Below, in pieces: positions 34,755-35,266 of a DNA stretch of 38,922 nucleotides. Position 1 is the first letter of the stretch, and every line of letters begins with the position of its first letter. Both the position numbers and the translations under genes were made by a program. The stretch is from a virus: UHGV virus genome UHGV-2190349, one strand, 5' to 3'. Under the pieces are notes generated by a model. That model was not told the origin of the DNA. It worked only from the letters and a program-made list of their open reading frames with translations, and did no database searches.

Positions 34755-35266
34755 GTTCTCGCGGGATAAATAAGGTGATCATTATTGGTCGCCTTGGGCA
34801 TGATCCAGAAATCAGATATTCACCATCAGGAACGGCATTTGCAAACCTTACAGTTGCTACGTCAGAACAATGGCGTGATAAGCAAACTGGAGAGCAAAAG
34901 GAGCATACGGAGTGGCACCGTGTGGTAATGAGCGGGAAACTGGCAGAAATTGCCAGCGAGTATCTGCGGAAAGGCTCAGAGGTTTATCTTGAAGGCAAAT
35001 TGCGGACAAGAAAATGGCAGGATCAAAGTGGACAGGATCGGTTCACTACCGAAGTCATCGTAGGCGTTGGTGGAACCATGCAAATGCTTGGTGGCAAGCA
35101 AGGAGGAAATGAACAGTCTTCTCCTCAGCGAAATAACGGTCAGCAACAAAGACAGCAACCTCAGCAGCAGGGAAATCACAGCGAACCACCTATGGAGTTT
35201 GACGACGATATACCATTTGCGCCAGTAACTCTCCCCTTCCCTCGTCACGCTATTCACGCAATTTAA
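34751..35266 (+). CDS. ssb: Single-stranded DNA-binding protein (SSB) with C-terminal extension beyond the DDDIPF tip
   Basis: Internal ATG start; OB-fold N-terminus ([19 protein letters not shown]...), Gln/Gly-rich linker, DDDIPF followed by 15 extra residues. Confidence 0.85.

Follow-up and report, generated by a model that had tools for sequence, protein, structure and literature searches.

The subject of this study is the ssb gene of UHGV-2190349, a virus genome of 38,922 nucleotides that overall corresponds to the genome of an E. coli phage or prophage of the P22-like kind, and in particular the 15 residues that its SSB (single-stranded DNA-binding protein) carries beyond the acidic DDDIPF tip. 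The whole of this stretch is referred to here as the window. The open reading frame (ORF) opens with an ATG at 34751 and closes with a TAA stop at 35264–35266 on the plus strand (Table 1). With respect to the body of the protein, the hallmarks of an E. coli-type SSB are present. Specifically, residues 5–104 match the SSB domain PF00436 (E=3.2e-38), and the curated ssb model TIGR00621 aligns with residues 4–156 (model positions 2–165 of 165) at 183.5 bits against a cut-off of 53.95. An AlphaFold model of the SSB, which was modelled as a monomer, places an OB fold with its beta-barrel at residues 6–113, with predicted local distance difference test (pLDDT) scores of 70–85, and this domain is followed by a disordered linker with the acidic tip. 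The tip is not the extreme C terminus, and its Phe (F156, codon 35216–35218) lacks a free carboxylate, as 15 residues follow. These extra residues are exactly as described in an earlier sequence-only reading of the window.

The tail lies outside the known SSB families. It has no counterpart in TIGR00621 or in the SSB sequences of the PDB, where alignments with the best matches (1EQQ/4MZ9, E=4e-65 to 3e-64) reach residue 156 at most. Residues 114–171 of the AlphaFold model are disordered, with pLDDT below 50 from residue 114 and about 30 over the tail, which has no secondary structure. Because it is left disordered in the model, the tail has the look of a short linear motif. Fifteen stop-free codons in a row may readily arise by chance (the expected run is about 21 codons), and therefore the length of the tail alone proves nothing; it is conservation in relatives that decides.

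Table 1. Features in and around the ssb gene of UHGV-2190349, in window coordinates.
Feature	Position	Strand	Remarks
Rad52/22-type single-strand annealing protein	33579–34286	+	PF04098 E=7.2e-26; phrog_1097 E=6.5e-130
Second free-standing HNH endonuclease gene (HNH_3 + HTH), unrelated to the gp26 family	34287–34754	+	PF13392 E=1.1e-13
ssb	34751–35266	+	171 aa plus stop; E. coli-type SSB, lambdoid recombination module
Gln/Pro-rich disordered linker	35087–35185	+	Residues 113–145; pLDDT <50; most variable part of the gene, dN/dS 0.39
Acidic tip, DDDIPF type	35186–35218	+	Residues 146–156; internal, not C-terminal; dN/dS 0.024 and 0.009
Empty insertion site TTT/GCG of the Sf6 gp26-family endonuclease gene	35216–35221		Unoccupied in the window
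15-residue tail	35219–35263	+	Conserved C-terminal extension, followed by TAA
Spacer TCAGGAGAAAATC with the abc2 ribosome-binding site	35267–35279	+	Sf6 and Huey have an identical spacer past the tail
abc2 (anti-RecBCD), next gene downstream	35280–35573	+	PF11043 E=8.9e-64

In terms of distribution, a search of 5.8 billion proteins revealed a tail of the same type after DDDIPF in 117 of the 120 best clusters, one of which by itself has 1,030 members. These 117 clusters are 73–95% identical overall with differing linkers, and their named sources are Escherichia (E. coli), several Klebsiella species, Citrobacter, Salmonella and Enterobacter. An 81-bp query comprising tip and tail located the fused allele as a contiguous match in 293 of 5,426 complete E. 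coli genomes, and the NCBI pipeline labels this allele plainly as ssb. The tail alone (45–46 bp) was matched in about 109 further E. coli genomes, with no annotated feature over it. The fused junction is also found in phages ECP1, HZ41 and HK75 and in hundreds of IMG/VR contigs, and the 201 bp around the junction are 100% identical in E. coli strain N9. When one genome per species was scanned for the tail pattern, true matches were confined to Escherichia, Lelliottia, Enterobacter, Kluyvera, Pseudescherichia, Buttiauxella and Citrobacter; of the 36 matches, roughly two in three were chance hits in unrelated phyla, and only the enterobacterial ones are real. Overall, a large SSB subfamily with a tail of 14–16 residues resides in the recombination modules of temperate lambdoid/P22-like Enterobacterales phages, and there is little doubt that the tail is genuine and inherited.

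Two contigs with other labels, L232 (an Actinomycetes MAG by its title) and L240 (Chryseobacterium sp. 18061 by its title), were observed to carry, at full identity, the endonuclease tail or the ssb tail of enterobacterial prophages, and their non-enterobacterial labels probably reflect contamination or mislabelling.

These observations bear directly on the sequence-only reading, which had offered a lost stop codon as one of two accounts of the extra residues and had named a sequencing error or frameshift, or homologs that all end at DDDIPF, as grounds for abandoning its claim. Read as a local accident, the loss of a stop is refuted by the in-frame tail in the best clusters and in the complete E. 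coli genomes. Nor do the homologs all end at DDDIPF, since the tail is kept in relatives and takes diverged forms in other genera. The comparison with related ssb alleles that had been proposed was run, and it bears out conservation of the extension, both in the 117 clusters and across 67 aligned variants. Sequencing error and private stop loss were consequently rejected: with an identical junction in strain N9, and the fused junction in three phage records, 293 complete E. coli genomes and hundreds of IMG/VR contigs, it is vanishingly improbable that the window alone has an error, a frameshift or a stop codon recently lost by mutation.

The diverged forms of the tail are informative as to what is being conserved. 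SSB loci gathered without reference to the tail contained the 15-residue versions APIGLQHPAHFIYSI (L277), APIGLMHPTHAIFSI (L340) and APIGLPYPRHAIYVI (L349), as well as those of L271 and L250/L251, and both the DNA of these tails and the genes downstream are quite different. A 48-aa tip-plus-tail profile, which returned mostly fragments and was used for tail diversity rather than counts, together with an all-against-all representative search, added many more, including the branches APIGLQYPALLNCM, LGHGYGVCRKAIYAIS and MGLGYGMERRIIHAM; Proteus, Providencia, Tatumella, Pantoea and Salmonella are among the sources named, the first four of them in a set of 39 further variants. The resulting 67 distinct tails of 14–16 aa can be aligned without large gaps, and their consensus is A-P-[VI]-[GT]-L-[PQ]-[FY]-P-R-H-[ATL]-[IL]-[HYN]-[AVC]-[ILM]. 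The ratio of nonsynonymous to synonymous rates (dN/dS) is 0.18 for the tail in a set that was not chosen on the tail, and in the first set the OB domain had a value of 0.12 and the linker one of 0.39. Moreover, the invariant tail residues are encoded by several synonymous codons. The capped tip is the most constrained part of the SSB, with dN/dS of 0.009–0.024. Comparison of these rates argues strongly that the tail is kept by purifying selection on its amino acids.

The boundary between tip and tail is also a point at which genomes differ. In phages Sf6, IME10, N7, CurroJimenez and Huey, the match to the window ssb falls into two pieces about 450 bp apart, separated between TTT and GCG/CCA, and this insert is absent at the Phe/Ala boundary in the window (where the empty-site DNA reads GACGACGATATACCATTT followed by GCGCCAGTAACTC) as well as in ECP1, HZ41 and HK75. 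In the occupied phages, ssb ends at ...DDSDIPF or ...DDEIPF and a stop codon, an ORF of 155–159 residues starts 9–15 nt later, and the end of this ORF lies on DNA identical to that of the window tail. In Sf6, for example, ssb ends at ...DDSDIPF and gp26 closes with the same 14 tail residues on identical DNA, and Huey is alike; the database record for Sf6 indeed describes gp26 as holding an unbroken stretch of 14 residues that matches E. coli SSB exactly. Variants P0128, P0218 and L097 end PDE/APVTL... with the Ala codon kept (the DNA of L097 reads ...GAC GAG GCG/CCG GTA), and therefore the insertion is placed exactly between the Phe and Ala codons (F156/A157). Where loci of this lineage were sampled, the tail is present in each of the 95 ssb genes that lack an extra ORF, and every ssb with a canonical end is followed by the insert ORF; empty sites number 95 and occupied sites 40–42.

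Taken together, these comparisons leave us confident that F156/A157 is the insertion point of a free-standing putative HNH-like endonuclease gene, of the Sf6 gp26 family, specialised on ssb 3′ ends. It is equally well supported by the alignments that the insert supplies a stop right after ...IPF, which would restore a canonical free SSB tip, and that the insert ORF, having no stop of its own, reads into the 14–15 tail codons. Both this role of the boundary and the very strong purifying selection that persists on the tip were missed by the sequence-only reading. The insert is present or absent at one precise site among near-identical genomes, and the target is altered where the site is occupied: the tips of occupied alleles are recoded (NFDDSDIPF, NFDDEIPF, DFDDQDIPF), while empty sites have [DE]FDDDIPF. 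With its precise presence or absence, conserved target and recoded tips, the insert behaves like a free-standing homing endonuclease gene.

Some alleles (P0027, P0066, P0081, P0095, P0104 and L049) were seen to combine tips of the occupied type, NFDDEIPF or NFDDSDIPF, with direct fusion to the tail. These would be either recombinants or cases of precise loss of the endonuclease gene, leaving behind a recoded and possibly resistant site.

As the same codons close two different proteins, we considered which of them owns the tail. With the tail removed, the insert ORF retrieved 252 homologs, and among the best 120 of these the protein normally stops 2–15 variable residues after ...HKHNKPIYP (KP[IS]YP); only the seven that adjoin a tail-type ssb carry the tail. 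The close relatives P0124, P0131 and P0125 (83–88% identical) lie 8–11 nt past other canonical ssb stops, and the C termini of such relatives are their own (EGLEVA, EDLKAA and EDNQANTPSNPDLTQ); the empty counterpart of the EDLKAA-type insert, seen in L290, is an ssb stop of the canonical kind. Furthermore, the PHROG family profile phrog_2340 spans endonuclease residues 1–143 only, and the AlphaFold model of the endonuclease has a pLDDT of 98 up to about residue 143 and of 50–70 over the tail. The fused ssb form is also taxonomically far broader than the endonuclease-with-tail form. Because the homologs have other C termini, because profile and fold reach their limit near residue 143, and because diverged tails occur without such a neighbour, the tail appears native to SSB rather than derived from the endonuclease, a conclusion that we consider quite secure and that makes the window an empty site.

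The converse possibility is that the tail is the C terminus of the endonuclease, fused in frame to ssb as its last 14–15 codons by a deletion running from the ssb stop into the endonuclease 3′ end, and then spread by recombination as a neutral leftover. The identical DNA on which the Sf6 and Huey endonuclease ORFs close would be expected in that case, the low synonymous rate (dS) of the common tail type suggests a young origin, duplicate-like spacers flank the Huey endonuclease gene, and in-frame ssb–endonuclease deletion chimeras do exist (P0153 and P0170). However, the junctions of these chimeras are elsewhere than at Phe/Ala, and such a scar is difficult to reconcile with a tail restricted to the seven homologs beside a tail-type ssb among the best 120 of 252, with relatives of 83–88% identity that end otherwise, with a family profile and confident fold that stop before the tail, with 15-aa tails of unrelated DNA on ssb genes that have no endonuclease nearby, or with the much wider taxonomic range of the fused form. 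A deletion scar is thus highly unlikely, and endonuclease origin was rejected as the main explanation on the strength of the unrelated C termini, the phrog_2340 limit at 143 and the drop in pLDDT.

Regarding the chimeras themselves, P0153 and P0170 join the SSB OB domain in frame to the C-terminal half of the endonuclease (for example, ...TTEVIVG/NFLRDGKLIRP...) and are labelled 'single-stranded DNA-binding protein' by their sources; they are probably decayed alleles formed at a short IVG microhomology. The endonuclease family is poorly covered by annotation: no Pfam or NCBIfam model was found for the Sf6 gp26 type, and an intact ORF of this type without an annotated feature was noted in E. 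coli EC24 (L243, 1066–1545), in E. coli matches H82–H85 and in many RefSeq E. coli chromosomes.

With respect to what a native tail might do, the known complexes of SSB with its partners Exo I, RecQ, chi and PriA bind the side chain and the alpha-carboxylate of the terminal Phe together. The importance of the carboxylate for the SSB-tip pocket is supported by fragment screening on DnaG (PMC5872125). The tail places the Phe carboxylate in a peptide bond and thereby caps the tip, and since side chain and carboxylate are bound together in the known complexes, host partners of SSB, among them Exo I, RecQ, PriA and chi, should be recruited less well by a capped tip. Weaker recruitment could in turn shield phage recombination intermediates, a role consistent with the neighbouring genes for an annealing protein and an anti-RecBCD protein, and the newly exposed hydrophobic, His/Tyr-rich C terminus could dock another partner. 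This mechanism, which rests on analogy with the known complexes, is tentative. A masked tip had been the other account in the sequence-only reading, and the part of it that concerns sequence stands, in that Phe156 is internal across a conserved subfamily; the alternative set beside it, a lost stop as a local accident, does not.

As a whole, a native and conserved cap with an endonuclease-linked boundary and a capping action of the kind just described is our best explanation, and we judge it moderately probable. In its fullest form, which is possible although doubtful, the tail would be a functional cap that makes a host-type SSB phage-dedicated, keeping host nucleases and helicases off phage single-stranded DNA and recruiting another phage or host partner, and insertion of the endonuclease gene would switch populations between capped and uncapped SSB.

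Several points weigh against this explanation. First, Sf6, a fully sequenced and recognised phage, makes a tail-less SSB, so that the tail is presumably dispensable there, and the extreme conservation of a capped tip is awkward for a role in masking pure and simple. Second, the dS of PVTL-type tails is well below that of the rest of the gene (0.12 compared with 0.74–0.85, and in the second set 0.43 compared with saturation); the common PVTL tail is therefore younger than its ssb lineages, or has been spread or homogenised by recombination or gene conversion, and judging from these rates its uniformity is owed in part to something other than protein-level selection. Third, the tail dN/dS comes from 15 codons and non-independent pairs, and the fractions of tail-bearing matches are not prevalences, as word-indexed protein search and pattern scans favour such matches. 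Finally, the spacer between ssb and the endonuclease gene in Huey (L003, TAATCATTGGGAGAAAAT-ATG, 1556–1580) resembles that between tail and abc2 (TAATCAGGAGAAAATC-ATG, 2040–2062), a likeness that would also fit an originally intergenic insertion. In Huey the ribosome-binding region thus looks as if duplicated on either side of the insert; Sf6 has no such likeness.

The low dS raises the question of whether the tail, although old and native, is conserved mainly as DNA, be it as the region that the endonuclease homes to or recognises, or as a recombination linker between mosaic modules, with gene conversion keeping it uniform and the peptide itself inert. The DNA context is in keeping with this. 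From one phage to another, homology is lost exactly at the stop codon of ssb (window 35264–35280; L051, L243 and other loci), beyond which abc2 or a gene for a DnaQ-like 3′–5′ exonuclease (MNHLMVDLETMGNG...) follows in roughly equal numbers of sampled loci; because other phages have different downstream genes, the tail travels with ssb. In E. coli a 90-bp segment of tip and tail can form an island between unrelated flanks (query matches 58–147), the tail boundary is where the putative endonuclease would cut or its gene inserts, with flanks that co-vary with its presence, and dS is 0.12 in the tail compared with 0.74 in the adjacent tip. Nonetheless, the diverged tails keep their length and A1, P2, L5, P8, H10, I12 and I15 while their codons change, the APIGLQYP..LLNCM and LGHGYGVCRKAIYAIS tails share the pattern without DNA identity, and the tail dN/dS of 0.18 is below the 0.39 of the linker. 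Nor was a stable RNA structure found over 35186–35300 (z=+0.85; 161 of 200 shuffles fold at least as well), and with the tail also kept before a different downstream gene, RNA structure or sequestration of the ribosome-binding site was rejected as the basis of conservation. We therefore regard an inert passenger peptide as quite unlikely.

The conservation of a capped tip is, on the other hand, what would be expected if the tip is eventually exposed, and it is this that keeps alive a regulatory role in which the tail is a removable pro-peptide, cleavage of which unmasks the canonical tip, or else marks the protein for degradation from its C terminus and so holds down the level of phage SSB. 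The tails end in [aromatic/His]-[small]-[I/L/M], often with Arg or Lys 6–7 residues upstream, and an ending such as ...RHAIHAI recalls the ClpX signal ...RRKKAI of MuA. No relationship to a protease signal is claimed here, and some branches (APIGLQYPALLNCM) have no basic residue; a regulatory tail is accordingly rather unlikely. The same reserve applies to PVTLPF, which is reminiscent of the beta-clamp-binding motif QLSLPL of Hda and for which no relationship is claimed. The native, conserved cap thus remains the explanation that we prefer.

Comparison with known systems helps to define what is unusual about the window SSB. It shares with the E. coli chromosomal SSB (1EQQ/4MZ9) the OB fold, the Gln/Pro-rich disordered linker and a tip, PPM[DE]FDDDIPF, that is near identical residue for residue; in the E. 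coli protein this tip is the extreme C terminus, whereas here 15 further conserved residues follow. It also resembles the lambdoid SSB-1 proteins (Sf6 gp27, ES18 gp48), which belong to the same family and whose genes have the same position between those for an annealing protein and an anti-RecBCD protein or nuclease. Over residues 1–145 its identity to Sf6 gp27 exceeds 95%; gp27 differs in ending at ...NFDDSDIPF, since its site is taken up by the gp26 endonuclease gene. The SSB-1 class is that of a survey of lambdoid recombination modules published in 2025, which describes its members as not having been studied experimentally and makes no mention of a C-terminal extension (PMC12315714). A precedent for phage-specific use of an SSB C terminus is provided by the recombination-module SSB of HK620 (SSB-2), in which the C-terminal residues of an NDYPPF tail make specific contact with the cognate annealing protein Sak4 on single-stranded DNA (PMC5928155). 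The HK620 protein belongs to an unrelated SSB family, however, and its motif stands at the extreme C terminus, with no extension past an intact DDDIPF.

Two further groups are relevant to the endonuclease and to the tip. Free-standing phage HNH homing endonucleases include those encoded by the T4 Mob and Seg genes and the I-HmuI-like enzymes. The gp26 family resembles them in its precise-site presence or absence, its highly conserved adjoining coding sequence and the recoded flanking codons, and differs in that the Sf6/Huey class of putative endonuclease has no stop of its own, uses the last 14–15 codons of the host gene and belongs to a family without a Pfam or NCBIfam model. The SsbB proteins of Bacillus and Streptococcus are naturally tip-less SSB paralogs for specialised DNA transactions; they too lack a canonical free acidic tip, but in SsbB the tip is missing altogether, whereas here it is retained under strong selection and capped by a conserved motif. 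Full-text literature searches with tail strings and with ssb/endonuclease descriptions found nothing, and the conserved SSB extension is apparently undescribed.

The 5′ side of the window ssb carries a mobile gene of its own. The HNH_3 ORF sits between the stop of the annealing-protein gene and the ssb ATG (GCATAA/ATG), overlapping the ssb start as ATGA. It is absent in Sf6, ECP1 and HK75, where GCATAA/ATG is contiguous, and occurs on the ssb 5′ side at 10 of 166 sampled loci as a sporadic and precise insertion. Beside it, the first six ssb codons are recoded to ATG AGT TCT CGC GGG ATA, compared with ATG GCA AGC AGA GGC GTA in Sf6 and HK75, and this recoding is the classic self-protection signature of a homing endonuclease, which the HNH_3 product would then putatively be. 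With the HNH_3 site on the 5′ side and the gp26-family site on the 3′ side, ssb is therefore flanked by sites of mobile genes at both ends.

The order of annealing protein, ssb and abc2 is the same in Sf6, ECP1, Huey and HK75, as expected of an SSB-1 module of the early-left operon. More generally, tail-bearing ssb genes are found alongside annealing proteins of the Rad52, ERF and Sak4 types, and therefore the partner of the tail, if there is one, is not a single annealing-protein core family. In this regard, we observed that Rad52-type, ERF-type and Sak4/AAA_24-type annealing proteins encoded upstream of ssb share a C-terminal domain of about 55 residues (...ILxxF...Y...W..L.G....Q.KC.....IR..ELKQAA), located at about 34119–34283 in the window and also present in L138 and L182 (ERF type), in L128, L250 and L271 (Sak4 type) and in L277 and L340. 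As a module shared by unrelated annealing cores, it is a candidate SSB- or partner-interaction domain. A separate case is that of Salmonella phage 103203_sal5 (L004, 1485–1956), in which the ssb frame is broken, stopping after about 40 codons when read from the start aligned with Sf6 and ECP1; this ssb has no tail, and another, different HNH endonuclease gene follows it.

What is new here is the pairing of an otherwise ordinary SSB, its signature tip covered by a conserved cap, with a mobile gene that takes this cap away. The free DDDIPF of SSB is treated as a universal docking point for well over a dozen genome-maintenance proteins and as an antibiotic target, and here is a large natural family, which reaches about 5% of complete E. 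coli genomes and extends to many other enterobacteria, that retains the tip under strong selection and yet never has it at the terminus. The analysis also brings to notice an unannotated family of putative endonucleases specialised on the 3′ ends of ssb genes. Natural alleles with and without the cap, in which the endonuclease gene is absent or present, constitute a built-in experiment on what the free SSB tip is for. If the cap changes the choice of partners, it would represent a simple viral way of protecting recombination intermediates or of redirecting the host SSB network, and it would matter for recombineering, where the match between annealing protein and SSB tail limits portability between species.

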